A stretch of 64,000 nt of DNA, taken from NCBI GenBank assembly GCA_905201895.1, contig CAJKPX010000007.1, positions 3,240-67,239 on the forward strand. Reading direction: 5' to 3'. The DNA is from an uncultured Eubacteriales bacterium (GTDB taxonomy: Bacteria; Bacillota; Clostridia; Oscillospirales; CAG-272). Position numbers and translations under genes: made by a program. The notes under the pieces are model-generated. The model saw only the letters and a list, made by a program, of their open reading frames with translations, did not search any database and was not told the origin of the DNA. Below are positions 2,894-54,034 of the stretch, piece by piece. Numbering within the stretch: the first letter of the stretch is position 1; every line of letters starts with the position of its first letter.

Positions 2894-3718
2894 TCAGATC
2901 ATCTGATCGGCGCACATGCGCAAGCGCCCCTTGCGCGTCTCGCCGTCAAAGGAACGCAGAATAAAGCGACCGTAGCCGCGCACCGAAACCGTTGCGGGTG
3001 GAGTCAGGATGACGTCCACGCGCTCCTCGGGCTCAAAATCAACCTCCACCAATCCGCTTCGCACCGCTCGCTGGGCAGCGTCACGCGAGAGATTGGTGAG
3101 TGCCGCAACCACGCAATCGAGGCGCGGCGAGGCAACCGTATCGCGGATCGGGCGGTATTTTCTGCCGTCGGTAAAGCTCCCGTCGGGCACGTAGGGCGTG
3201 CAATGCACGCTGTCCGAGCCGATTCTGCACAGATTTTCGGTCAGGAACGGCAGCATCAGGCGTGGACAGAACACCACCGCCTCGTGTTCGTTTTGCACGG
3301 CAATATCCCCCAGCGCGTCACGCTCCAGCCCGAGCGCGAGGATCGAGCCGAGATAATCGCGGTGCGCAAGCACGCGATAGCCGCTGCCCTTGATGCGAAC
3401 CGCCTGCACCGCCTCACCGACCTCCTCCTCAAGGAGCGCCAACACGGCAGCGTCATCATCCTCGGGCACCCGCTCGCCCTCAAGTGCCGCGAGCAGATAA
3501 TCGGGCAACAAAAAGAGGCATGCACGCTCTGCGCCGCCGTAGCCGCCCCAGAACCATGCCGCCTCCCATGCGCCGCACATTCGCAGATAGCGCTCTGCCG
3601 CACGTCTCTCGCGCGGCGTCAGAAACGGCAGACCCGCCACCTCTCCGCGTCGGCTCTTTTCCACCGCATCGGAAAGGCGCGCCTCAAGCAGATCGCGCGA
3701 AAAAATACGCTCCGTCAT
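2894..3718 (-). CDS. ylmH: YlmH-like RNA-binding (S4-domain) division-cluster protein
   Basis: 274-aa ORF directly downstream of yggT/sepF in the conserved ylmE-sepF-ylmG-ylmH order. The C-terminal RLDCVVAALTNLSRDAAQRAVRSGLVEVD segment is S4-like. Confidence 0.65.
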   Translation of the reverse strand: MTERIFSRDLLEARLSDAVEKSRRGEVAGLPFLTPRERRAAERYLRMCGAWEAAWFWGGYGGAERACLFLLPDYLLAALEGERVPEDDDAAVLALLEEEVGEAVQAVRIKGSGYRVLAHRDYLGSILALGLERDALGDIAVQNEHEAVVFCPRLMLPFLTENLCRIGSDSVHCTPYVPDGSFTDGRKYRPIRDTVASPRLDCVVAALTNLSRDAAQRAVRSGLVEVDFEPEERVDVILTPPATVSVRGYGRFILRSFDGETRKGRLRMCADQMI

Positions 3719-4107: not shown

Positions 4108-4608
4108 TCAAGCCTCCTCGTCGGCGGGAATCTCCTCGTATGACTCGTCACCCTCAACCGGTGCCTCATCAGCGGGCTCCTCGGACACGATGCCCGAAAT
4201 GTCCACGCCTGCGGGGGAGACCACGATGGTGCTCTTGTTGGTTTTGATCATCTCTCCGCCGAGCACGTAGACAACGCCTGCCAGAAATCCAACCAGACGC
4301 TGCGCCTTGTCCTTTGCAAGATCGCTCACGTCGAGCAGAACGATGCAGCCCTCCTTGAGCTTATCCGCGATCGTGCTTGCCTCGATGTGGCTCTTGGGCT
4401 TGAGCAGCTTGATCTCCACCTTATCGGGGGTTGCAGGGGTTGCGTCCACAACGCGTCCTGCGGACTCACCCACAGCGGCAACGTCGGCGGACTCATCGTC
4501 TGCCATTTCCATCTTCAGATCCTCGGGCATCATGTAGACGTCCTCGTAGTTTTCGTCCTCCTGCAGGTCTGCATTATCGTTTCTGAGAAATCTTTTCAGC
4601 ATATTCAT
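4108..4608 (-). CDS. sepF: Cell division protein SepF
   Basis: 166-aa ORF with an acidic linker. The C-terminal core (LKPKSHIEASTIADKLKEGCIVLLDVSDL...RLVGFLAGVVYVLGGEM) matches the SepF fold pattern. Sits between yggS and yggT. Confidence 0.85.
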   Translation of the reverse strand: MNMLKRFLRNDNADLQEDENYEDVYMMPEDLKMEMADDESADVAAVGESAGRVVDATPATPDKVEIKLLKPKSHIEASTIADKLKEGCIVLLDVSDLAKDKAQRLVGFLAGVVYVLGGEMIKTNKSTIVVSPAGVDISGIVSEEPADEAPVEGDESYEEIPADEEA

Positions 4609-5376: not shown

Positions 5377-6632
5377 CGGTATACCCTCCCCTCGTATAAA
5401 TTTTCTCCCGAGGTGATCATCATATCGTTTCGGGAAAGATAGCCCTCGCGATCACCCTCCTCGGCAACGATGCAATAGCCGTCTCCTCGATAGAGCACCT
5501 CCACACGTCGGAAGCGCACCGTGCTCTCCTCGAAGATGAACACGCCTTCAACGCCGTCCTGCACGCGCAACGCCGCGTCGGGGACATGGTAGCCCACGTA
5601 GCTCCCCACCGTGATCTGCACGCGCTGGGACCGCAAATAGACGAAATCGGTTGGCACCTCATCGGTGAAAAAGACTGCGACCGCTCGTCCGTCCGCCGCC
5701 TCGACCAGCCGCTCGCAGATCAGCGTCATCTCGCGTCCGCCGTTGTCGGGAAATACGAAGTCATAGTCCTCGCCCGCCTCAAAAAAGGCGGTGCACGCTG
5801 CGTCAATCGCAACCGCAAGATACCAGCGGTTGCCGATCGCCATTTTCCCGACCGCAAAGCCACCGCTCTCGGGGGGCTCTGTCGCGACCAGGTCCTCAAA
5901 GCTCTCCACCGTCAGGCTCTCAAGCACTGCCGTTGTAAAGAGTGACTCATATCCGTCCACTCGCGAGGCATCGTAAAAATACCCCGAGGCATCGCTATTG
6001 TAAACCGTGAGCGGCGTTCCACGCAGAATCGCGTCACGCTCGGCATGAAGTGCCTCCAGCGTGGTCTCCACACCGCCCTCCTCGCCAATGAGCGTGCGAT
6101 AGCGATTGAGCAAAGCCAGCATCGTGTCCGAAAGTGCCCGCAGCTCCTCGCGTTCTCCGCGAGAGAGGGCTCGCCGCATCTGCACGTAGATCGCTTCCGC
6201 CTCCCGACGGAACAGCTCCGCCTTGGCGAGCGTGGTCCCCGCGCCGAGGCGACTGTCCTCCAGCACGGCGATCATACGGGTCACCGCGTCGAGTCGGATC
6301 TGTGCCGACACGCGGCTTTCATCATTGTATCCGTCCCACACCTCGGCAACTCTTGAGCCCTTGGCAACCTTTTCGCCGTTCTCGGCGAAACGCAGGATCA
6401 CACCCGCGCCCGAGGTGGTGAGCACGCGCTCCTCCCGAAAGAGATAGGCGTCACCGCCAACGATCTGATAGTCGGTGTGCAGATAAGCAGGCGTTGTCAT
6501 GGGCGGCTCGTGCGGCGAAAGCACGTGAAAGAAAACGTAGACGAGCAGACCGAGCAGGGCAAGCGTTGCCGCAAAGCGCGGAAAATATTTTTTCAAAAAT
6601 GCAAATCTTGTCACGCGGCACCTCCTCCCCAC
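5373..6632 (-). CDS. Membrane-anchored HlyD-like (periplasmic adaptor-like) protein
   Basis: 419-aa ORF with a single N-terminal TM helix (FAATLALLGLLVYVFFHVL), then a coiled-coil-like middle and a beta-rich C-terminus. Assignment is by architecture only. Confidence 0.4.
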   Translation of the reverse strand: MGRRCRVTRFAFLKKYFPRFAATLALLGLLVYVFFHVLSPHEPPMTTPAYLHTDYQIVGGDAYLFREERVLTTSGAGVILRFAENGEKVAKGSRVAEVWDGYNDESRVSAQIRLDAVTRMIAVLEDSRLGAGTTLAKAELFRREAEAIYVQMRRALSRGEREELRALSDTMLALLNRYRTLIGEEGGVETTLEALHAERDAILRGTPLTVYNSDASGYFYDASRVDGYESLFTTAVLESLTVESFEDLVATEPPESGGFAVGKMAIGNRWYLAVAIDAACTAFFEAGEDYDFVFPDNGGREMTLICERLVEAADGRAVAVFFTDEVPTDFVYLRSQRVQITVGSYVGYHVPDAALRVQDGVEGVFIFEESTVRFRRVEVLYRGDGYCIVAEEGDREGYLSRNDMMITSGENLYEGRVYR

Positions 6633-6647
6633 GTTTCTCGGGTCACG

Positions 6648-7610
6648 TCAGTCCGTGCCGCTCTGCCAGATCGCCACGGCTTCGTCGCACAGCTCGTCGA
6701 GCGAGCGAGTCTGTCCGTCTCTTGCCGCCTCAATCCAGCGCACGTAGTCCTTGGCACCAAACCAGGTCATCTGTCGCTTGGCATAGCGGCGCGTTGCGGT
6801 CTTGAGCAGCTCCACCGCCTCCGCCTCACTCTGCTCTCCGTCAAGACAGGCAAGCAGCTCCTTGTAGCCGATCGCCTGTGCCGCCGTGTGATTTTCGGCA
6901 AACACACCCTCGGCAAGCAGTGCACGCGTCTCGTCAAGCAGTCCGTCGGCAAGCATGCGATCCACGCGCGCGTTGATGCGTGCATGAAGCAATGCACGGT
7001 CGGGATAGCAAAGACCGATCACAGTAGCATCAAAGGGGCTTTCCCACGCCTGCGTGAGACGGTCTGCCTCGCTTTTGGTCATGCCCGTTCCTTCATATAT
7101 TTCAAGCGCGCGGATCACACGCTTGACGTTGTTTTCATGGATCGACGCCGCGCTTTCGGGGTCGCCCTCGGCGAGCCGACGGTGTAGCGCCGCACTCCCC
7201 TCCTCTGCCGCAATCGCAAGCAACCGCTCACGCGCGGCGGGGTCAATGCGCGTTTCGGCAAAGCCTCCGCGCAGAAGCGAATCGAGATAGAGCCCCGTAC
7301 CGCCGCAAAGAATCGGCAGACCTCCGCGCGCGGCAATCTCTCCGATCACGCACTGTGCCATCGAAACGTAGTCGGCGCAGGAAAAAGGCTCGTGCGGCTC
7401 GGCAACGTCGATCATGTGATGCGCGATCCCCTCGCACTCGCTCGCCGTCGGCTTCGCGGTTCCGATATTCATGCGTCGGTAGACCTGCATCGAGTCGCAG
7501 GAGACGACCTCGCCTCCGAGCCGCTTCGCCAATGCCACCGCCAACGCGCTTTTCCCGCTCGCCGTGGGACCGACAACGGCAAGCACCCGAATTTTTGAGC
7601 CGTCGCTCAC
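6648..7610 (-). CDS. miaA: tRNA dimethylallyltransferase
   Basis: 320-aa ORF with P-loop VVGPTASGKSALA followed by VSCDSMQVYRRMNIGTAKP, the canonical MiaA N-terminus. Confidence 0.9.
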   Translation of the reverse strand: MSDGSKIRVLAVVGPTASGKSALAVALAKRLGGEVVSCDSMQVYRRMNIGTAKPTASECEGIAHHMIDVAEPHEPFSCADYVSMAQCVIGEIAARGGLPILCGGTGLYLDSLLRGGFAETRIDPAARERLLAIAAEEGSAALHRRLAEGDPESAASIHENNVKRVIRALEIYEGTGMTKSEADRLTQAWESPFDATVIGLCYPDRALLHARINARVDRMLADGLLDETRALLAEGVFAENHTAAQAIGYKELLACLDGEQSEAEAVELLKTATRRYAKRQMTWFGAKDYVRWIEAARDGQTRSLDELCDEAVAIWQSGTD

Positions 7611-9067: not shown

Positions 9068-9096
9068 TTGACAAACGGCTTCGGATTGTGTATAAT
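9068..9096 (+). promoter_or_regulatory. Sigma-70-type promoter for tRNA-Ser
   Basis: TTGACA (9068-9073), 17-nt spacer, TATAAT (9091-9096). Lies about 50 nt upstream of the tRNA. Confidence 0.7.
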
Positions 9097-9144
9097 ATAC
9101 TTTGTCACAAGAATCTGCAAGCGGCGTCTTGTGATTGAGTATAC

Positions 9145-9236
9145 GGAGAAGTACTCAAGAGGCCGAAGAGGCGCCCCTGCTAAGGGTGTAGGCCGGGTTT
9201 ACCGGCGCGAGAGTTCAAATCTCTCCTTCTCCGCCA
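9145..9236 (+). tRNA. tRNA-Ser (anticodon GCT), class II with long variable arm, CCA encoded
   Basis: Manual fold: acceptor GGAGAAG/CTTCTCC, D arm CTC..GAG, anticodon stem CGCCC/GGGTG with loop CTGCTAA, long variable arm, T arm GAGAG-TTCAAAT-CTCTC, 3' GCCA. Confidence 0.9.
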
Positions 9237-36948: not shown

Positions 36949-37423
36949 TGATCTTGACCTCAAACGGAGCGGTACCGTCCTTGCCGGCAATCTCGTGCTC
37001 GGACTTGTCGCTCATGCCGTGATCGTTGGTGGCGACAAACTTGGCAAAATTGGCGTTGTAATATCCGCAGACGGCGTTAGAGATGAGCTTTGACTTCTGA
37101 TATTCTTTCGCACGCGCGTATGCGTGCCTAAAACGAGCACTCTGCTTGCACCAATTTAGCAAGGTGTCTCTCACCACACCAATCTTTGCCGCAAAGCCCT
37201 CGAAGGTGGGATACTCGTTACCGATGATCATGATCGGCTTTCCGTCTGTCCCTCCTATCTCCCTTGTGTTCGGGGTGGAAAAATACTCGATAAGCATATC
37301 GGCGTACTCCTCCTTATATTTAGAGGCGGCAGCATTTTCAAGTTTAAACTTGTGATCCTCTGCCTCTCTGCGCTCTTTAGTGTAAGATCCGCGCTCTGGA
37401 TTGCGTTCTTTTTTTGTTGCCAT
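36929..37423 (-). CDS. terS: Terminase small subunit
   Basis: 164 aa from MATKKERN, preceded by AAAGGAGGTAT. The FEGFAAKIGVVRDTLLNWCKQSARFRHAYARAKEYQ pattern is typical of HTH-type small terminases. Overlaps terL. Confidence 0.7.
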   Translation of the reverse strand: MATKKERNPERGSYTKERREAEDHKFKLENAAASKYKEEYADMLIEYFSTPNTREIGGTDGKPIMIIGNEYPTFEGFAAKIGVVRDTLLNWCKQSARFRHAYARAKEYQKSKLISNAVCGYYNANFAKFVATNDHGMSDKSEHEIAGKDGTAPFEVKINVIDKH

Positions 37424-37477
37424 AAAAGATACCTCCTTTGGCACATATAATATCTATAGATGAGTATAGACCACAAA

Positions 37478-37497
37478 GGTCGCAAAATGGTCGCAAA
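37478..37497. repeat. Direct repeat GGTCGCAAA x2, 11-bp phased, upstream of terS
   Basis: GGTCGCAAA at 37478-37486 and 37489-37497, in the terS upstream region. Candidate late-activator or packaging-related site. Confidence 0.35.
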
Positions 37498-37541
37498 TAA
37501 TCGCCTCGAAAAAATTTTTTAAACTTTTTTTGAAAAACCTC

Positions 37542-37570
37542 TTGACATACCCGATGGAGTATGCTATAAT
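37542..37570 (+). promoter_or_regulatory. Consensus sigma-70 promoter with A/T-rich UP-like element driving the plus-strand moron cassette
   Basis: TTGACA (37542-37547), 17-nt spacer, TATAAT (37565-37570), preceded by AAAAATTTTTTAAACTTTTTTTGAAAAA. Confidence 0.7.
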
Positions 37571-37624
37571 GATGGCACGATAGCAAATCCACCGATCAAC
37601 AAAAACACCGAAAAGGAGAACATC

Positions 37625-37837
37625 ATGAAAGCATTCACCACCATCACCGAAAAGGACATCCTCTACCACGCATATCATCACATCCTCGACCTTTGGCTAA
37701 AATCAGAAGATAACTACTCCAAGAGCATTCTCGCAGGCAAACCCAACAGTATAACCAAGTACCGCAGAGACAGATACCACGCACAACTCGAAGAGCTTCA
37801 CGCAGCGATCCTCGAATTGGAAAAAGAAGCACAGTAA
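37625..37837 (+). CDS. Hypothetical small protein (moron cassette ORF1)
   Basis: 70-aa ORF preceded by AAAAGGAGAA. Predicted helical. Confidence 0.5.
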   Translation: MKAFTTITEKDILYHAYHHILDLWLKSEDNYSKSILAGKPNSITKYRRDRYHAQLEELHAAILELEKEAQ

Positions 37838-37882
37838 ACCAAATCGGAAAGCGAATCCCCAAAGGCGCAGAAAGGATATAAC

Positions 37883-38071
37883 ATGAAAATGACAAAGACT
37901 TACGCAAAGTACATCTTGACCCTTTGGAAAGACAAATCCCCCCTCTTCAACGGCAGCATGACCGAAGGACAGTTTGACGCCTACCTTGAGATTCACGGCA
38001 TCGGGCAGGCAGAGCGCATCGTGATCCTGACCGCGCTCGTCATGGCAGGAGCGAAATTCGCAAACAATTGA
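37883..38071 (+). CDS. Hypothetical small protein (moron cassette ORF2)
   Basis: 62-aa ORF preceded by AGAAAGGA. Hydrophobic C-terminal helix (RIVILTALVMAGA). Confidence 0.45.
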   Translation: MKMTKTYAKYILTLWKDKSPLFNGSMTEGQFDAYLEIHGIGQAERIVILTALVMAGAKFANN

Positions 38072-38085
38072 GGAGGGAGACCGGC

Positions 38086-38202
38086 ATGAAAATCATCAAG
38101 ACCGTTTTCGAGATCATCGCGCTTCTCGTTGGAGCGCAGTGCGACACCTACAAGCAAGCCGTTGCAGATGGAATCTGCGACTTCTCGGGGCAAGGAAAGT
38201 GA
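38086..38202 (+). CDS. 38-aa hydrophobic peptide with GAxCD...DFSGQG motif (paralog of 49852-49986)
   Basis: Not in the ORF track. MKIIKTVFEIIALLVGAQCDTYKQAVADGICDFSGQGK preceded by GAGGAGGGAGA. Confidence 0.55.
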   Translation: MKIIKTVFEIIALLVGAQCDTYKQAVADGICDFSGQGK

Positions 38203-38211
38203 GGGAACGAC

Positions 38212-38472
38212 ATGACCATGACCAGCGGACATCACGAATGCTTCCAACGTTTACGGCGTGCAAGACTATCTAACCCTGTAAACACCGACGAATTGGAGAA
38301 CATCCGAGACTTTTACGGATACGACCTATACATAGAGTGCCTGCGGGAAGTTCTGAAGATCAATGCATTTGCAGAGGAGAACGGTCTGTCGTTCGTCGGT
38401 GCGCAGAGAATGATGTATGAGATTGAGAACGACATCGACACCGAAGCACCATTTGAATCATTGAGAAGCTGA
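38212..38472 (+). CDS. Hypothetical small protein (moron cassette ORF4)
   Basis: 86-aa ORF preceded by GAGGGAACGAC. Confidence 0.45.
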   Translation: MTMTSGHHECFQRLRRARLSNPVNTDELENIRDFYGYDLYIECLREVLKINAFAEENGLSFVGAQRMMYEIENDIDTEAPFESLRS

Positions 38473-38548
38473 TTTACAGAATGTTAATTTAATCGCAACG
38501 GAATCGCCACAAAATGATGGTATCATATCAAGAAAGGACGGTGAGAAC

Positions 38549-38731
38549 ATGAGCATTAAAGATAAAGACCGCAAAGCGCGAGAGAATTACCGCAAGAAGG
38601 TGGAAAAGGTGCAGTTTGAGTTATTCCCAGGAGACGATGATATAAAGCAACGTCTTGCAGAGGTCAAAGAGACCGAAGGAAAAGCCGCATACATTCGCAG
38701 ACTGATCCGTGAGGATATCAAAAAGGGATGA
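38549..38731 (+). CDS. Small basic ribbon-helix-helix-like protein (moron cassette ORF5)
   Basis: 60-aa ORF preceded by AAAGGACGGTGAGAAC. The KKVEKVQFELFPGDDDIKQRLAE...AAYIRRLIREDI pattern (beta strand followed by two helices) is RHH-like. Confidence 0.4.
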   Translation: MSIKDKDRKARENYRKKVEKVQFELFPGDDDIKQRLAEVKETEGKAAYIRRLIREDIKKG

Positions 38732-38757
38732 CCGCAAGGTCACCCCTTTTCCTTTTT
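38724..38757. terminator. Bidirectional hairpin terminator between convergent units
   Basis: GGGATGACC-GCAA-GGTCACCCC with A-run/T-run flanks. Lies between the ends of 38549-38731 (+) and 38779-39117 (-). Confidence 0.5.
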
Positions 38758-38778: not shown

Positions 38779-39117
38779 TCACGTTATCAGCGATAGTCCG
38801 ACTGCGATATCGTGGATCGCTTTCCGTTTGCGGGCGTAATAGGTGTTTTTGGCGAGGAACGGAGAAGCCTGCGAGAAATGATACCCTCTGCGGCAGCAGA
38901 TGTCGCTCAAGAGACTCTTTCTGATCCCAACCTCAACATCATCAAGCGCATTGTCCACTGCATTGTTAAGGGCAACATACAAAGCAAGCACGTCTCCGTC
39001 AACAGACCCAAATTGGATCATGCGAGACCGTCTGTCATAGTCATCGCACACTGCTCTCACAAGCTCTACCACGGTGCGCGGAATCTCCCACTTGTGGTAT
39101 ATCCTCTGCTTTGCCAT
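38779..39117 (-). CDS. Candidate late-gene transcriptional regulator (RinA/ArpU-like by position)
   Basis: 112-aa ORF, the last gene of the early/middle operon before the packaging genes. Helical with a basic C-terminus. Weak call. Confidence 0.3.
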   Translation of the reverse strand: MAKQRIYHKWEIPRTVVELVRAVCDDYDRRSRMIQFGSVDGDVLALYVALNNAVDNALDDVEVGIRKSLLSDICCRRGYHFSQASPFLAKNTYYARKRKAIHDIAVGLSLIT

Positions 39118-40057: not shown

Positions 40058-40765
40058 TCATGTCTCTCCCTCCATACACTCTCTTAATGATTCCTTGATG
40101 TAATAGTCGATTTCAAGCTTCTTGCAAAGATTCTCCGCTTCTCTACCAAATTTCGCCCAGTCTATATCCGATGGATGATAGTTAAGTTTTCCAATCTTGA
40201 CCTTGTTGACATAAGGCGCTACCACACCGATAAGAGCCAGAACATTCTCGGCGTTTACCACAGGCTCAAACGATACCCATGTTTTGATGCCTATGCGGTG
40301 CGCCTCTATTAGCGAGCAGACCAGCTCCTCCATCGAGGATGCATAAGGATTGCCTTCTCCGCCGTCAAGCGTGACTCCATACCAGTCCTCGCTATCGAGA
40401 AGATCGAACACTCGCTGGGCATCCGCGCCGTTCTTGGTAAGGATTTGAATGTGGTTTCCTGCTTGCTTCAAAGCAAAGATGATGTCTCTAGTCGGGGATA
40501 TGTTTATCGCACCTCTCGGGAATGGGTCGCAGGTAAAGCACAGATGAACCAACTTTCCTGTGATCTTCTCTCGCTTTAACTGATTTATAACCTCATCCAC
40601 GATATTTTCTCTCGGTCGTACATCCGAATGAAACTTCTCCCGCTCCCTGTGAAGAACATTCGGTGCAAAGCAGTAAAAGCATCTGTGCGGGCATCCAGTG
40701 TATATGTTGATGGCAAGATCGCCATACTCTTTAGCTTTGCCTCTCGGTTCATAAATCGGCTTCAT
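40058..40765 (-). CDS. Radical SAM enzyme (SplB/COG1533-like small family)
   Basis: CPHRCFYC (CxxxCxxC) cluster about 25 aa from the start. ~235 aa. ATG overlaps the stop of the upstream methyltransferase (ATGA) and is preceded by GAAGGAGAAAGAG. Confidence 0.7.
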   Translation of the reverse strand: MKPIYEPRGKAKEYGDLAINIYTGCPHRCFYCFAPNVLHREREKFHSDVRPRENIVDEVINQLKREKITGKLVHLCFTCDPFPRGAINISPTRDIIFALKQAGNHIQILTKNGADAQRVFDLLDSEDWYGVTLDGGEGNPYASSMEELVCSLIEAHRIGIKTWVSFEPVVNAENVLALIGVVAPYVNKVKIGKLNYHPSDIDWAKFGREAENLCKKLEIDYYIKESLRECMEGET

Positions 40766-41256
40766 GTCTCTTTCTCCTTCATAAAGCATAGCCAATTTGT
40801 GTTCATTTTCTTTCCGGAATGGTGACCAAACAAAGGTTGATAACCTATTGCATTAATGATTTCCGGAGTCGGAATCTGTATCTCCGACCACTTAAACACA
40901 AGCACTCCATCTGTCTTTAGAACCCTCATGCATTCGGAGAACCCTCTCACAATGTTGTCAAGCATTTCTTCTTTGGTGTCATATGTTCCGTACCTCTTTG
41001 CGATCCACGAATCCTTTAGACCAAATCTATGAGGAGGATCAAAGACCACAAGGGAGAATGTGTTATCATCGAATGGGAGATCCGTGAAGTCCCCGACAAC
41101 ATCAGGGTGAATAATAGTGTGCCTTGTTCTTGGAATCTTTCCAAATGTTTCCTCATACTCAACATCTCTGCGGTCAAAGTAGATCGCAAGAGGATGCTTT
41201 TTGTTAAACCAGATTGATCTTGCGCTGCAAGTTACATCAAGTATTTTCTTTTTCAT
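40762..41256 (-). CDS. Small SAM-dependent methyltransferase with DPPH motif (N6A/N4C DNA-methyltransferase-like)
   Basis: 164 aa from MKKKILDVTCS. LVVFDPPH is catalytic motif IV of amino-methyltransferases, and RVLKTDGVLVFKW is also present. RBS GAGGAGGAGAAC. The open frame extends to 41376. Confidence 0.6.
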   Translation of the reverse strand: MKKKILDVTCSARSIWFNKKHPLAIYFDRRDVEYEETFGKIPRTRHTIIHPDVVGDFTDLPFDDNTFSLVVFDPPHRFGLKDSWIAKRYGTYDTKEEMLDNIVRGFSECMRVLKTDGVLVFKWSEIQIPTPEIINAIGYQPLFGHHSGKKMNTNWLCFMKEKET

Positions 41257-41746
41257 TTTTGTTCTCCTCCTCATATTCTTCGCAGCTTCCGAACACATTC
41301 GGCTCGCAAGACACCATGTGTTTGCAAGTCGGGCATTCTTGCGGAATGTATTTCTTTTTGAGTTCGGCAATATCATCGCGTTGTATTATAGAGCAATTAT
41401 TCCAATACAAGTGTGCGTCACACAATCTCTCAATCTCCGCAAAAATCTCCCTCGCAACCTCGGCTTTGGCTTGCTCATAGTGCATCTTGTAAGAGTTTGC
41501 CGCTCCGCGCATCGCTTCATATTCCACGGTCACACGCTCAACTTCTGATTTGATTTCTTTCAATCTTCCAAGTTGTTCTTTCTGCATCTCCAAAACCTCG
41601 CTCTTTGGTACAACATCGGCAGGTGGCAATTTGCTAATTTCGTCTGCTGATGCAAAAATTCCGTATGAAAAAGATAGCGGATATTTTGCTATACAAGCAC
41701 CTCGCAAATGCTTTATCAAATCTTCTCGCTTGATATATTCGTCCAT
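41237..41746 (-). CDS. Hypothetical coiled-coil protein with C-terminal Cys motif
   Basis: Start at MDEYIKRED, preceded by AAAGGCGGAGAA. C-terminus is CPTCKHMVSCEPNVFGSC. The N-terminal extension shown in the ORF track looks spurious. Confidence 0.45.
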   Translation of the reverse strand: MDEYIKREDLIKHLRGACIAKYPLSFSYGIFASADEISKLPPADVVPKSEVLEMQKEQLGRLKEIKSEVERVTVEYEAMRGAANSYKMHYEQAKAEVAREIFAEIERLCDAHLYWNNCSIIQRDDIAELKKKYIPQECPTCKHMVSCEPNVFGSCEEYEEENKNEKENT

Positions 41747-49391: not shown

Positions 49392-49862
49392 TTAATTTTT
49401 TGGTAAACTATAATCACTTGCCCACATCCAAGCATATCCTGCGGATGTCTTTGTCTTGCCGTTGCAACAATCGCGGATGCTATCCGCTTTCTTGAGCCCC
49501 ATTGCGATTGCCGCCTCCAACGCGCTTGGATAGGTGTTAAAATAGCGGAAGCCTTCTTTTCCAAGCTGAACAACCGCTTTTGAATTCGCGTTCGGCTTGT
49601 GTCCCTCGACCTCGCGGCGATGGCATGGGTAGGAGCAACATTCACCCCATGCGTATTCACGCCCTGCATAGCGGATGTAGTTCTTGCCGCATATTAAGCA
49701 CTTTTTATCAAAAATTCCTATAGGAAAATGTTTAATATGGGTTGACAAACCCTCGTCCGTGGTGTATAATACGGATGAAAGGGTGTTTCCTGCCCCTTTC
49801 TCCTTGCCCTCAACCGTGTCATTGGTCTGCTCGGTTGAGGGTCTTTTTTCGTTACTTCCCAT
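49392..49862 (-). CDS. NUMOD1/IENR1-like DNA-binding protein with Cys cluster
   Basis: The C-terminus (VVQLGKEGFRYFNTYPSALEAAIAMGLKKADSIRDCCNGKTKTSAGYAWMW) is the classic NUMOD1-type module. Start at MGSNEK, preceded by GGGGAGGGACGAAT. Confidence 0.5.
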   Translation of the reverse strand: MGSNEKRPSTEQTNDTVEGKEKGAGNTLSSVLYTTDEGLSTHIKHFPIGIFDKKCLICGKNYIRYAGREYAWGECCSYPCHRREVEGHKPNANSKAVVQLGKEGFRYFNTYPSALEAAIAMGLKKADSIRDCCNGKTKTSAGYAWMWASDYSLPKN

Positions 49863-49986
49863 ATTCGTCCCTCCCCTGACCGGAGAAATCCGCGATGCCC
49901 GCCTCGACATCCTCGCGCCGCCAATCGCAATCCGCTCCGATGAGCATTGCGATGAGGTTAAATAAGAAATTCAACACCTTTTTCAT
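49852..49986 (-). CDS. 44-aa hydrophobic peptide with GAxCD...DFSGQG motif (paralog of 38086-38202)
   Basis: MKKVLNFLFNLIAMLIGADCDWRREDVEAGIADFSGQGRDEYGK preceded by AAGGAGGATA. Confidence 0.55.
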   Translation of the reverse strand: MKKVLNFLFNLIAMLIGADCDWRREDVEAGIADFSGQGRDEYGK

Positions 49987-50219: not shown

Positions 50220-50447
50220 TCATGCTCTAAAGAGCTTCGCGTTAACGAGCTGATCTGCGGTAACACCCATGTAGGATGCGAGAGCAAAGAGCTTGTCGAT
50301 GGGCGGGAGCTTGTCTCCGTTCACAACGTGCGCAAGCATGGTGGTCGAGATTCCGGTCGCATCTGCGAGGTCCTTCTGGGTGATTCGCTTGTTCACCAGA
50401 AAGCACTTCACATTCTTGCGGAAGTTTTCTCTCTGTTTCTCTGTCAT
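50220..50447 (-). CDS. Cro-like XRE-family HTH regulator
   Basis: 75-aa ORF. ITQKDLADATGISTTMLAHVVNG is an XRE HTH. Divergent from the CI-like gene. RBS AAGGAGGTA. Confidence 0.75.
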   Translation of the reverse strand: MTEKQRENFRKNVKCFLVNKRITQKDLADATGISTTMLAHVVNGDKLPPIDKLFALASYMGVTADQLVNAKLFRA

Positions 50448-50457
50448 GTTTACCTCC

Positions 50458-50486
50458 TTGACAAATTTGATTTTTTGTGGTAGAAT
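50458..50486 (+). promoter_or_regulatory. Rightward promoter (toward CI-like gene)
   Basis: TTGACA (50458-50463), 17 nt, TAGAAT (50481-50486). Confidence 0.6.
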
Positions 50487-50512
50487 GGTCTTGTGATTGA
50501 CCTTGTGACATC

Positions 50513-50541
50513 ATTATACAACACATTTGCCACTTTGTCAA
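50513..50541 (-). promoter_or_regulatory. Leftward promoter (toward cro-like gene), consensus
   Basis: On the minus strand: TTGACA (50541-50536), 17 nt, TATAAT (50518-50513). Confidence 0.65.
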
Positions 50542-50631: not shown

Positions 50632-51291
50632 ATGTTTTGGGAAAATTTTTTAACTTTATGTAGGAATCGAAATGTTTCACCGTCATTCGTTTGCACCACG
50701 CTCGGTTTATCCACCACGCTTGTTTCTCGTTGGCGGAACGGATCAATCCCACGAGATATTACCTTATTAAAGATAGCGGAGTATTTCGGCGTTCCGACCG
50801 ATGCGCTCACAATGGAGGACATTGATATTATCAAGGCGGCGGACATCGCCGCTCGGATGATCCAAGACCCTTCCCTCGTGGAGCAGATCGAGAATCGGGG
50901 CGTGCGCGTTCCCGTGTACGGAAATGTTTCCGCAGGTATCCCGCTTGAAGCCATTACCGATATTGATGACTATGAGGATATCTCGCAGGAGATGGCGGCA
51001 AAGGGGGAGTATGCCGCGCTCCGCATTCACGGAGACTCAATGGAGCCTCGCATGAGGGACGGAGACATTGTCATCGTGAGACTACAAGACACGATCGAGA
51101 GCGGTGAAACAGCCATCGTCATGATCAACGGAGGAGATGCCACTTGCAAAAAGATCAAGCGCACCGAGGACGGCATCATGCTCATCTCGACCAATCCAAA
51201 GTATGAGCCCATGTTCTTTACCAACAAGCAGATCGAGGGGCTTCCGATCACGATCTGGGGCAAGGTTGTCGAGCTCCGCGCAAAGTTTTAA
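50632..51291 (+). CDS. CI-like repressor (XRE HTH + S24 LexA-type autopeptidase)
   Basis: 219-aa ORF with an N-terminal HTH. C-terminus has VPVYGNVSAGIP...RIHGDSMEPRMRDGDIVIV...CKKI (Ser/Lys dyad context). Confidence 0.85.
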   Translation: MFWENFLTLCRNRNVSPSFVCTTLGLSTTLVSRWRNGSIPRDITLLKIAEYFGVPTDALTMEDIDIIKAADIAARMIQDPSLVEQIENRGVRVPVYGNVSAGIPLEAITDIDDYEDISQEMAAKGEYAALRIHGDSMEPRMRDGDIVIVRLQDTIESGETAIVMINGGDATCKKIKRTEDGIMLISTNPKYEPMFFTNKQIEGLPITIWGKVVELRAKF

Positions 51292-52974: not shown

Positions 52975-52990
52975 TTGATTGGTGGATGAA

Positions 52991-54034
52991 ATGGCACAGA
53001 GATCAACAAAGCGCAACGATGGACGGCTTGTCCGTGCCATCACAGACCCTCGCACAGGTAAGCGCAAATATTTCTACGGCGCGACCGAGAGAGAAATAAA
53101 CAAAAAAATAATGGAGTACACCGCCAAGATCGAGAGCGGCAGACCCTTCAGAGAGGTCGCAGAGGAGTGGTGGGAGGCTTCAAAGGATGGCTTGGCATAC
53201 CAAACCATAAAGGTGTATAAGCCTGCCCTGGAGAGAGCCGTGGAGGCTCTCGGTGATATGTCCATCCGTGACATCAAGCCGAGGGATATAAGCGCACTTC
53301 TCCAACGGATGGCAAAGGCGGATTATGCCCTCAAGACCGTTGCCAATCAACGGACCGTTATCAATCAGGTGTTCCGCCATGCTATCCTTGAGTGTGACAT
53401 CGAGGTTAATCCATGCGCATCCGTCCCCACGCCAAAGAACCTAAAAAAGGTGCGAAGGGATGCCGCCACCACAACGGACGAGGATATCGTGCGAGAGCAT
53501 CGTGACCTTTGGGCTTTTCCTTACATCGCTCTGATGACCGGAATGCGCAAGGGAGAGATCCTTGCGCTCCAATGGAAAGACATTGACTTTGATGAGGATG
53601 TCATCCACGTCACCAAATCGGTGGGACATCAAGGTGACAGACCATTCATCAAAGAGCCAAAGACAGAGGCAGGGACTCGCATAGTCCCACTCTTGGCGGA
53701 TCTAAAAGAATTCCTTCTCACATTCAAAAAGAGAAGGGCAGAGCACTACATCATATCAGATGACGGAAAGACTCCTCTAACCAACAGAAGATATCTCACC
53801 TTGTCAAAGCATTTTAAGGAGCAGACGGGCGTGGAATGCACGGCGCATCAATTGCGCCACTCGTTTGCCACGATAGCCTTTGAGAACGATGTTGATGCCA
53901 AATCGATACAAGAAATCATCGGTCACAAGCAGCTATCAACCACCATGGATATCTATGCGGATTTCCGCGAACAATCCGTAAAAAAGGCGGCGGAAAAGCT
54001 CAACAAATCCTCGTTGTCAACGCCAAAAAAATAG
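52991..54034 (+). CDS. int: Tyrosine recombinase / phage integrase
   Basis: N-terminal SAM-like core-binding region. Catalytic-domain motifs LMTGMRKGEILALQWKDID, AHQLRHSFAT and GHKQLSTTMDIYAD (R..HxxR..Y). Adjacent to attR. Confidence 0.9.
   Translation: MAQRSTKRNDGRLVRAITDPRTGKRKYFYGATEREINKKIMEYTAKIESGRPFREVAEEWWEASKDGLAYQTIKVYKPALERAVEALGDMSIRDIKPRDISALLQRMAKADYALKTVANQRTVINQVFRHAILECDIEVNPCASVPTPKNLKKVRRDAATTTDEDIVREHRDLWAFPYIALMTGMRKGEILALQWKDIDFDEDVIHVTKSVGHQGDRPFIKEPKTEAGTRIVPLLADLKEFLLTFKKRRAEHYIISDDGKTPLTNRRYLTLSKHFKEQTGVECTAHQLRHSFATIAFENDVDAKSIQEIIGHKQLSTTMDIYADFREQSVKKAAEKLNKSSLSTPKK

Follow-up and report, generated by a model that had tools for sequence, protein, structure and literature searches.

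The window analysed here, a stretch of 64,000 nucleotides from an uncultured Eubacteriales bacterium (contig CAJKPX010000007.1), holds a prophage of about 46 kb with a G+C content of about 50%, compared to about 60% in the host. Its structural, packaging and lysis genes, between 37.4 and 9.4 kb, are read from the minus strand, and so are its early genes, between 50.4 and 38.8 kb. The gap that separates terS from the minus-strand genes upstream of it is taken up by a plus-strand block of about 1.3 kb with five open reading frames (ORFs) coding for products of 70, 62, 38, 86 and 60 aa, which forms the subject of this report and is referred to as the cassette (Table 1). An earlier note, made from the letters of this DNA, had pointed out this antisense block, and its description proved accurate both in the positions of the five ORFs and in the strand switch, nearly all long ORFs at 9.4-37.4 kb and 38.8-50.4 kb being minus-strand. 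The AT skew changes sign only at 37-39 kb, and the G+C content of the cassette amounts to 0.45-0.49 compared to about 0.51 in its flanks. Each of the five ORFs is preceded by a Shine-Dalgarno-like site and obtains a positive score from a crude codon-usage gene caller.

The cassette opens with a promoter which, as the earlier note had seen, agrees with the consensus in every position of both hexamers and in addition carries the TG extension of the -10 box; its expected transcription start lies near 37577. A/T tracts similar to the one found directly 5' of its -35 hexamer precede the promoters of sister cassettes in L068, L070, L140 and L089 (L-numbers denote related loci). Sites with no more than one mismatch to TTGACA-17-TATAAT occur eight times in the window, five of them perfect, whereas 0.19 are expected, and others among them are sensibly placed, namely 5' of a tRNA gene and in a divergent switch region at 50.46-50.54 kb. 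Because of this strong enrichment we regard the consensus sites as real promoters in this organism. The spacer between the two hexamers of the cassette promoter is filled by an imperfect palindrome which occurs once in the window. Upstream of ORF5, the last gene, a TGnTAT(C/T)(A/T)T box is situated about 22 nt 5' of the start codon in at least eight lineages, and its counterpart in the window may be a second, putative promoter for ORF5 alone. The closing hairpin, likewise recognised by the earlier note, folds with -18 kcal/mol on the plus strand (z -4.0) and with -22.6 kcal/mol on the minus strand (z -4.4), and of 200 shuffles none folds as well (0/200). As a strong hairpin is formed in both orientations and T-runs are present on both strands, we consider this terminator bidirectional; the cassette ends at it, and so does the minus-strand operon upstream. 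A simple hairpin scan had missed it because of one internal mismatch. Comparable hairpins are present 3' of the ORF5 homologues in L068, L070, L138 and L146.

Table 1. Positions of the cassette elements, of neighbouring prophage features and of related sites in sister loci (window coordinates unless a locus is named)
Feature	Position	Strand	Description
A/T-rich phased tract GAAAAAATTTTTTAAACTTTTTTTGAAAAA	37507..37541	+	UP-element-like, 5' of -35
Cassette promoter	37542..37570	+	-35 TTGACA (37542-47), 17-bp spacer, extended -10 TGcTATAAT (37562-70); sigma-70 match 12/12
Candidate operator palindrome CATACCCGATGGAGTATG	37546..37563		core ATACCC-N4-GGAGTAT, imperfect; fills spacer, overlaps end of -35 and TG of extended -10
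ORF1	37625..37837	+	70 aa, predicted mostly helical
ORF2	37883..38071	+	62 aa, conserved C-terminus ...AGAKFANN
ORF3	38086..38202	+	38-aa peptide, hydrophobic N-terminal helix, conserved C-terminal DFSGQGK
ORF4	38212..38472	+	86 aa, acidic, pI (isoelectric point) 4.7; replaceable slot
Putative promoter of ORF5 alone	38518..38526	+	extended -10 TGgTATCAT, no good -35
ORF5	38549..38731	+	60 aa; basic N-terminal helix, predicted beta-strand VQFELF, two helices ending YIRRLIREDI
Intrinsic terminator, bidirectional	38721..38757		hairpin 38721-38750, 12-14 bp stem, T-runs on both strands
Putative terS/late-gene promoter	37463..37505	-	TTGCGACC twice (plus-strand 37478-37485, 37489-37496) and a third degenerate copy, then TATACT (37468-37463)
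Intergenic stretches shared with L146	37597-37630, 37836-37889
Intergenic stretches shared with window	L146 4516-4549, 5659-5713
TTYACA-N5-TTYACA sites	L079 ~2495-2520; L073 ~1028-1050; L143 ~3430-3455; L146 ~4425-4455; L068 ~6945-6970
p112	38779-39117	-	112-aa product; called 'late regulator' from its position alone
Perfect promoter	9068-9096		directly 5' of tRNA-Ser(GCT); G+C falls here from ~60% to ~50%
tRNA-Ser gene	9145-9236		adjoins one prophage end
cro-like helix-turn-helix gene	50220-50447	-
LexA-like S24 repressor gene	50632-51291	+	same end as integrase
Tyrosine integrase gene	52979-54034		opposite prophage end

A conspicuous property of the spacer palindrome is its association with homologues of ORF5. 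The contexts of relatives were gathered for homologues of ORF5, ORF2 and ORF4, and loci supplied without gene calls were mapped by the crude codon-usage caller, which recovers the genes of the window. In L068 and L140 the promoter spacer is the exact reverse complement of that in the window, and variants of ATACCC-N4-GGGTAT are found in L079, L073/74, L143, L077, L146, L085, L089/99, L152 and L150; in every such case the promoter is near-consensus, its spacer is taken up by the palindrome, and the palindrome borders on the -10 box or overlaps it. The exact palindrome CATAC-N8-GTATG, for which 1.2 occurrences are expected anywhere in the 1.27 Mb searched, is present there only in the cassette promoters of the window, L068 and L079. 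In promoter context, the degenerate palindrome occurs 11 times in 0.53 Mb of ORF5 loci compared to 0 times in 0.80 Mb of control loci, these being related phage loci without ORF5, whose six pattern matches look random and never stand in promoter context. L150 and L152, two IMG/VR loci fetched after the pattern had been defined, both agree with it: L152 carries TTGACA-TACCCGCGGGGGTATGA-TATAAT and L150 a version with one mismatch, each just 5' of small genes ending in an ORF5 homologue. Distant members of the family are adjoined by promoters matching the consensus in 11-12 of 12 positions whose spacers contain other palindromes. The operator follows ORF5 whatever adjoins it, be it p112 as in the window, DUF1492-type proteins as in L068/L070/L147, or the site between tail and integrase genes as in L073. 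Since it does so regardless of the neighbours, ORF5 is the best candidate for the protein binding to it, which argues against a neighbouring regulator. Two near-consensus promoters with the same spacer palindrome flank the regulator gene of L089 (657, 1605) and four are found in L163 (4070, 5068, 6989, 7792), an arrangement which suggests small regulons rather than single operons around some genes of this family. The earlier note had called the cassette promoter constitutive-looking, a view which finds no support in a promoter harbouring, between -35 and -10, a palindromic operator that travels with ORF5 homologues.

ORF5 is the sole protein common to the cassettes, the other genes being without detectable similarity between lineages. 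About 11 other phage lineages with unrelated cargo share only the promoter palindrome and an ORF5 homologue near or at the 3' end; the latter is encoded last or next to last in L068, L070, L073, L077, L079, L085, L140, L143, L146, L147, L150 and L152. Even within one phage backbone the cargo varies, comprising three genes in L070, six in L140 and seven in L143. In L001, which is about 92% identical elsewhere, the slot of ORF4 (38216-38472) is occupied by an unrelated acidic gene of 84 aa, and in L138 ORF4 is kept (98%) while ORF5 is swapped, from its start codon on, for a distant member of the family. Between unrelated genes, intergenic stretches of 34-55 nt (about 91% identical) are common to the window and L146; they may be recombination linkers for an exchange of cargo at gene boundaries.

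The cassettes are inserted at three sites. In the window, L068, L070/140/143, L077, L079, L085, L146 and L147 their place is on the opposite strand, with a putative late activator on one side and terS on the other; in L150 and L152 it is between tail and lysis genes, and in L073-75 and L092/93 between lysis genes and integrase. In L009 the p112 homologue and terS are separated by 385 bp and there is no cassette; a terL genome scan yielded 61 loci, among which L009 alone has this junction in common with the window, and the remainder served as controls. In a structural sense the moron architecture claimed by the earlier note is therefore borne out by a unit with its own promoter and terminator whose flanking genes are nearly adjacent in a relative. 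Across the cassettes the cargo is mostly small and acidic. Recognisable products are PcfK/PcfJ-like proteins, a J-domain protein, YopX, DUF7698 and, in the L073 operon, a pair of ParB_N and PAPS reductase; with PADLOC, the cargo yields only defence-type models such as DndC, which is matched by the PAPS reductase. In L153 (3037-5032), which represents a distant subfamily, a 12/12 promoter with a spacer palindrome is situated just after the regulator gene and precedes the gene for an HD hydrolase, then a pair of RelB/DinJ-like and RelE-like genes and finally terS, all on one strand.

Two further elements were noticed in the sister cassettes. A small hairpin, CACAGGGC-N5-GCCCACAA (L068 ~5610-5632, L077 ~2840-2865, L073 ~1090-1115), is common to the 5' leaders of several of them and may exert control at the RNA level, as has been reported for Aca1 and Aca2; the leader of the window cassette is unstructured and without this hairpin. 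In addition, a direct repeat, TTYACA-N5-TTYACA, is found 20-25 bp 5' of the -35 hexamer in several cassette promoters and also 5' of some ORF5 genes, where it possibly serves as the site of a second regulator or as UP-like phasing.

Homologues of ORF5 form 74 clusters (homologue counts for the ORFs refer to representative clusters) and were found in 62 metagenome loci and 17 IMG/VR loci, with ratios of non-synonymous to synonymous substitution rates (dN/dS) of 0.06-0.25. The family, which is unannotated, comprises proteins of 55-65 aa in which a basic N-terminal segment, predicted to be helical at residues 5-17, is followed by a brief hydrophobic stretch with Pro as its last residue and by two helices; the second of these, YIKRLIREDI, is near-invariant. 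Searching the PDB with the family profile retrieves 2kke (E 0.0098) and, more weakly, 2k1o and 1x93, all of them small dimeric proteins with the same order of elements (strand-helix-helix). While 2kke and 2k1o are annotated just as uncharacterised or putative, 1x93 (HP0222) is a protein which we take to be a ribbon-helix-helix (RHH) protein. The most recurrent weak match to the family in Pfam is RHH_7, with a best E of 0.0014, below the cut-off. The RHH fold which the earlier note had guessed for the last product agrees with these weak but consistent matches, and ORF5 is likely an RHH protein, as far as profile comparison can tell. Cultured relatives are lacking, as no counterpart of ORF5 turned up among 50,697 phage records and 72,556 plasmids; one distant member of the family gives a single weak match, to an uncultured faecal phage contig. 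Scanning IMG/VR with the single ORF5 sequence retrieved nothing, and with terS only distant loci. A co-variation of the N-terminal arm of ORF5 with the operator was considered and dropped, as similar arms are found in L146 and L085, whose operators are unchanged or differ slightly.

None of the five products has a match in Pfam, PHROGs, NCBIfam or PADLOC, just as the earlier note had found no recognisable families among them. For ORF1 there are 44 homologue clusters, with proteins of 63-85 aa and E values as low as 8e-23. ORF2 has 22, with 19 invariant columns and a pairwise dN/dS of 0.19-0.37, and its homologues occupy the same type of cassette in L146 and L147; its AlphaFold2 model (mean predicted local distance difference test score, pLDDT, 82) has no significant fold neighbour in the PDB. 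ORF3, with a dN/dS of 0.08 against L001, has homologues in L138 and others, and further relatives in the cassette of L150 and the early region of L070 make it a recurrent peptide family with the tail D(F/L)SGQG(K/R). Its hydrophobicity, noted earlier for the peptide as a whole, is confined to the N-terminal 15 residues or so and does not extend to the remainder. For ORF4, five homologue clusters are found and a dN/dS of 0.17 against L138, based on few differences. Looking up the exact proteins, ORF1 and ORF4 are not on record. Values near 1, named by the earlier note as a refutation of coding, are far from the overall pairwise range for ORF2-5 (0.06-0.37), and ORF1 is genuine by virtue of its 44 clusters; judged by this conservation, all five ORFs are real genes.

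A paralogue of ORF3 with 49% identity, a 44-aa peptide, is encoded at 49855-49986 on the minus strand. A perfect promoter on the plus strand (49742-49770) is directed towards it, and behind this promoter come two hairpins and a T-run up to about 49852, so that an RNA of about 75 nt is predicted to converge on the peptide gene in a layout resembling type I toxin-antitoxin systems. Compared to the SR6 antitoxin in Rfam this RNA scores 20.1 bits (E 0.62), far below threshold. An action of the RNA in trans on the cassette mRNA was rejected, the pairing being no better than that of shuffled sequences.

On the other side of the cassette promoter, terS (with terL at 35.6-37.4 kb) matches GP3_package (6.5e-12) and phrog_3064 (3.4e-23) and most likely starts, judging from its ribosome-binding site, with the ATG at 37423 rather than the GTG at 37444. 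From the repeats and the -10-like box in front of it, terS and the late genes appear to start at a promoter of their own, back to back with the cassette promoter. In L009, which is without a cassette, analogous direct repeats (GAGTAAAGT twice, 2365-2420) and TATGAT follow just after the p112 homologue. The repeats at this place differ from phage to phage, being of CGATTA type in L068 and ATACCC four times in L140. Together with the -10-like box they may constitute a late promoter with sites for a phage-specific activator. The 11-bp GGTCGCAA repeats (37478-37505) and similar AATCGC repeats 5' of ORF5 had been considered as operators of ORF5; they were rejected as such because they vary with the phage backbone and because cassette-free L009 has an analogous pair. 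As to the neighbours named in the earlier note, terS stood up to these comparisons. The label 'late regulator' gained no backing from them, as p112 matches nothing in Pfam, PHROGs, NCBIfam or the PDB and shows no similarity to the DUF1492-type activators of sister phages.

From the tRNA-Ser gene and the fall in G+C, one end of the prophage (9068-9236) is probably the attachment site. At the opposite end two near-perfect divergent promoters (50458-50541) lie between the cro-like gene and the gene of the S24 repressor, a region which presumably constitutes the lysis-lysogeny switch. In the early region, genes for a radical-SAM-like protein (245 aa) and a DNA-methyltransferase-like protein (204 aa) adjoin that of dUTPase (40058-41376, minus strand), and these two proteins might be concerned with DNA modification. 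DNA similarity to cultured phages was not found, and a search of the whole window with Rfam gave zero matches at the gathering threshold.

We consider it probable, though well short of assured, that the cassette is a self-contained accessory ('moron'-type) operon under a circuit of burst and subsequent shut-off in which ORF5 acts as the repressor. In the regulatory circuit taken by itself we place considerably more confidence. That the cargo serves anti-defence or the takeover of the host is our leading guess, drawn from analogy, and has somewhat less than an even chance of being right. According to this proposal, host RNA polymerase would fire the consensus promoter without any phage factor, and upon entry into a cell free of ORF5 the four cargo genes would be expressed in a short, strong pulse. 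The product of the last gene, the small RHH protein ORF5, would then turn them down, its dimer occupying ATACCC-N4-GGAGTAT across the spacer and the TG/-10 region and thereby excluding the polymerase. Repression is preferred over activation because consensus hexamers at a spacing of 17 bp need no activator. In the lysogen, the weak second promoter in front of ORF5 would maintain the repressor and keep the cassette low. The bidirectional terminator would shield the converging upstream minus-strand operon from the cassette, and terS and the late genes would be transcribed from their own promoter, back to back with that of the cassette. The head-on conflict with transcription entering the packaging genes, which the earlier note had predicted, would thus largely be avoided. 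Cargo would be exchanged freely between phages while promoter-operator, ORF5 and terminator stay in place, and ORF1 to ORF4 would act early, against host defences or in host takeover, as in acr-aca and plasmid establishment operons.

Several observations weigh against this proposal. The sequence matches of ORF5 to RHH proteins are marginal, and the AlphaFold2 monomer (pLDDT 68.5) shows two helices, one of them at residues 5-17, and a low-confidence linker in place of the strand; Foldseek finds no match for this model. A poor monomer model is, however, to be expected, since the protein would be an obligate dimer. It is from co-occurrence, and from nothing besides, that we infer the binding of ORF5 to the operator. 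This co-occurrence is not perfect either: L070 (5899-6138, compared to L140 3495-3784) retains its ORF5 homologue together with upstream GGGTAT repeats, yet has lost the consensus promoter and operator, and may represent a decayed or re-wired cassette, and in L147 the spacer contains a different palindrome. Among the Pfam and PHROGs matches listed for 58 + 41 cargo proteins there is no known anti-CRISPR, anti-restriction or anti-defence family, and with the HD hydrolase and the RelB/RelE-like pair of L153 the cargo is not uniformly 'anti-defence-like'. Finally, negative autoregulation is also compatible with steady expression in the lysogen.

This last point leads to the alternative that the cassette is an ordinary lysogenic-conversion moron, expressed steadily from the prophage under autoregulation by ORF5, with products that benefit the lysogen through superinfection exclusion, membrane protection or defence. 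Its autonomous promoter and terminator and the near-adjacency of the flanking genes in L009 would be accounted for, as would the use of classical moron sites in other phages (tail-lysis, lysis-integrase, 5' of terS), the small membrane proteins encoded after the ORF5 homologue in some sisters (70 aa in L068, 54 aa in L146), the RelB/RelE-like pair in one sister cassette and the steady expression expected from negative autoregulation. The window ORFs, however, match no defence model in PADLOC and include no transmembrane protein of normal length among the cargo, and where a consensus promoter contains the operator and the repressor has a promoter to itself, the design is that of a pulse circuit rather than of steady low expression. 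We therefore regard a moron of this kind as unlikely, albeit as the most serious competitor; for superinfection exclusion, which the earlier note had brought up, nothing was found in support. The pairing of an RHH-like gene with a strong promoter and overlapping operator would also fit a region like immI of phage P22, where an Arc-type RHH protein limits a strong promoter and the cargo is an antirepressor or otherwise controls the switch, a role for which the LexA-like S24 repressor of the prophage offers a possible target. No cargo product matches an antirepressor family, ORF5 comes last whereas arc comes first, and the extreme variability of the cargo is unfit for a core function of the switch, which renders this explanation improbable.

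About as improbable, or slightly more so, is that ORF5 chiefly regulates late and packaging transcription and that the small ORFs are mere passengers. Its family adjoins terS in at least eight lineages, direct repeats of the half-site GGGTAT lie between cassette promoter and terS in L070/L140, and the RHH-associated promoter of L153 faces terS. Against this, the sole palindrome of the window is part of the plus-strand promoter, at a distance of about 80 bp from that proposed for terS, and faces away from the latter, the terS-side repeats (TTGCGACC) do not resemble the operator, and ORF5 homologues with the same operator are located far from terS in L073-75, L150 and L152. The least probable of the explanations weighed here is a toxin-antitoxin module, a layout which the earlier note had brought up, be it with ORF5 as RHH antitoxin of type II or with ORF3 as toxic peptide of type I. 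RHH antitoxins are common, and the hydrophobic N-terminus of ORF3 and the paralogue converging on a candidate RNA with its sub-threshold match to SR6 could be taken in favour; with a convergent small-RNA candidate next to this paralogue, the toxic-peptide idea is not absurd. ORF5, however, lacks a conserved partner and a C-terminal extension, is encoded in last rather than first place, behind four unrelated genes, and matches to toxin families or defence models are absent (Pfam, PHROGs, PADLOC). As regards type I, there is no minus-strand promoter-like site near ORF3 (38200-38500) and no Rfam match, and the candidate RNA fails to pair with the cassette mRNA better than its shuffled versions.

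A pulse-expressed accessory operon repressed by ORF5, the reading we prefer, would be of interest beyond this prophage. To our knowledge, phages of the dominant gut Firmicutes have yielded few anti-defence genes so far. A conserved regulator combined with a recognisable operator-bearing promoter is the type of marker that opened anti-CRISPR discovery in Proteobacteria, and what the present analysis adds is such a conserved frame of promoter, operator and regulator marking exchangeable accessory genes in uncultured gut Clostridia phages. The regulator is carried by at least 74 protein clusters and about 80 loci, and the promoters are recognisable by sequence. One regulated frame is thus used at three classical insertion sites, and its content seems to be exchanged at gene boundaries via short conserved linkers. 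More boldly, the YIKRLIREDI proteins could be a widespread, unannotated 'Aca-like' class of RHH proteins in gut Clostridia phages, maybe distant kin of the repressor Aca14 discussed below, with ORF1 to ORF4 and the other genes they control as new defence inhibitors; we offer this as speculation and would not bet on it. If true, the ORF5 gene together with the ATACCC-N4-GGGTAT promoter would give a means of finding anti-defence genes in phages in which hardly any have been recognised. If the cargo consists of ordinary genes of benefit to the lysogen, the cassette would amount to nothing beyond a neat case of a regulated moron.

The known systems to which the cassette can be compared resemble it to different degrees. 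Classical morons, as described by Hendrix and colleagues for lambdoid and HK97-like phages, are single genes without a dedicated repressor and operator. The cassette shares with them the autonomous unit of promoter, genes and terminator between genes that are adjacent in a relative (L009) and the slightly lower G+C content, but differs as a multi-gene, self-regulated entity with a conserved frame and exchangeable content. In immI of P22, the strong promoter Pant and the RHH repressors Arc and Mnt produce a burst followed by shut-off of one antirepressor gene, ant. As proposed for ORF5, small RHH repressors there limit a strong phage promoter at a place apart from the main immunity region, but arc is promoter-proximal whereas ORF5 is promoter-distal, and a single antirepressor takes the place of the variable genes seen here; no ant homologue is present among the Pfam and PHROGs matches to the cassette and cargo proteins. 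On a mobile element of Firmicutes, the conjugative Bacillus plasmid p576 of the pLS20 family, the RHH repressor Reg, transcribed from its own promoter, acts on strong sigma-A promoters, so that establishment genes are expressed for a short time once the plasmid has entered a naive cell (PMC8708921). The cassette as proposed would have in common with it an RHH-type repressor with a promoter of its own and strong promoters under its control. Reg, however, binds direct dual heptamers, TTATCCCnnTTATCCC, flanking the promoter, as opposed to a palindrome within the spacer, and p576 is a plasmid rather than a phage, with the anti-restriction gene ardC among its cargo.

Closest in organisation are the acr-aca operons. 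Those governed by helix-turn-helix repressors (Aca1, Aca2 and others; Stanley et al. 2019; PMC6765145, PMC9410906) have a strong promoter with an internal operator and a regulator gene at the 3' side, and their cargo turns over around a constant regulator, which is what guilt-by-association searches exploit; in all of this they are like the cassette. Unlike there, the predicted fold of ORF5 is RHH, and no cargo product is verified as, or homologous to, an anti-CRISPR protein. The first RHH protein among the Aca repressors, Aca14, acts via an inverted repeat overlapping the -10 box, possesses an extra DNA-contacting N-terminal helix and can control neighbouring operons; PAPS reductases are listed among Aca-regulated cargo (Feussner et al. 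2026, bioRxiv 10.64898/2026.07.27.740549 / PMC13551039). Alignment of the ORF5-family profile with Aca14 by hhalign, for which the Aca14 query was rebuilt from a table with one base restored, gives a probability of 58% and an E of 9.7e-5 over 44 columns with the same order of elements, while BLASTP between the ORF5 family and the rebuilt Aca14 is not significant. The operators differ, ATACCC-N4-GGGTAT here compared to TGTATATG(N)CATATACA for Aca14, as do the hosts, Aca14 belonging to Pasteurella and other Proteobacteria and the present family to gut Clostridia phages, and no known acr gene is contained in these cassettes. Three features of an acr-aca operon are present, namely a strong promoter in front of small variable genes, a conserved gene for a putative DNA-binding regulator at or near the 3' end and an inverted repeat in the promoter that is linked to this regulator. 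The cassette would accordingly work like an acr-aca operon, and we refrain from classing it among them, as none of the cargo is a known anti-defence gene. With Aca14 in particular it shares the succession of variable small genes and a conserved small regulator, the inverted repeat in the promoter and an extra N-terminal helix, for which the helix in the ORF5 model would be the counterpart. Like Aca14, some members of the ORF5 family flank or may control more than one promoter (two in L089, four in L163), and the cargo of L073 includes, as in Aca-regulated operons, a PAPS-reductase gene.

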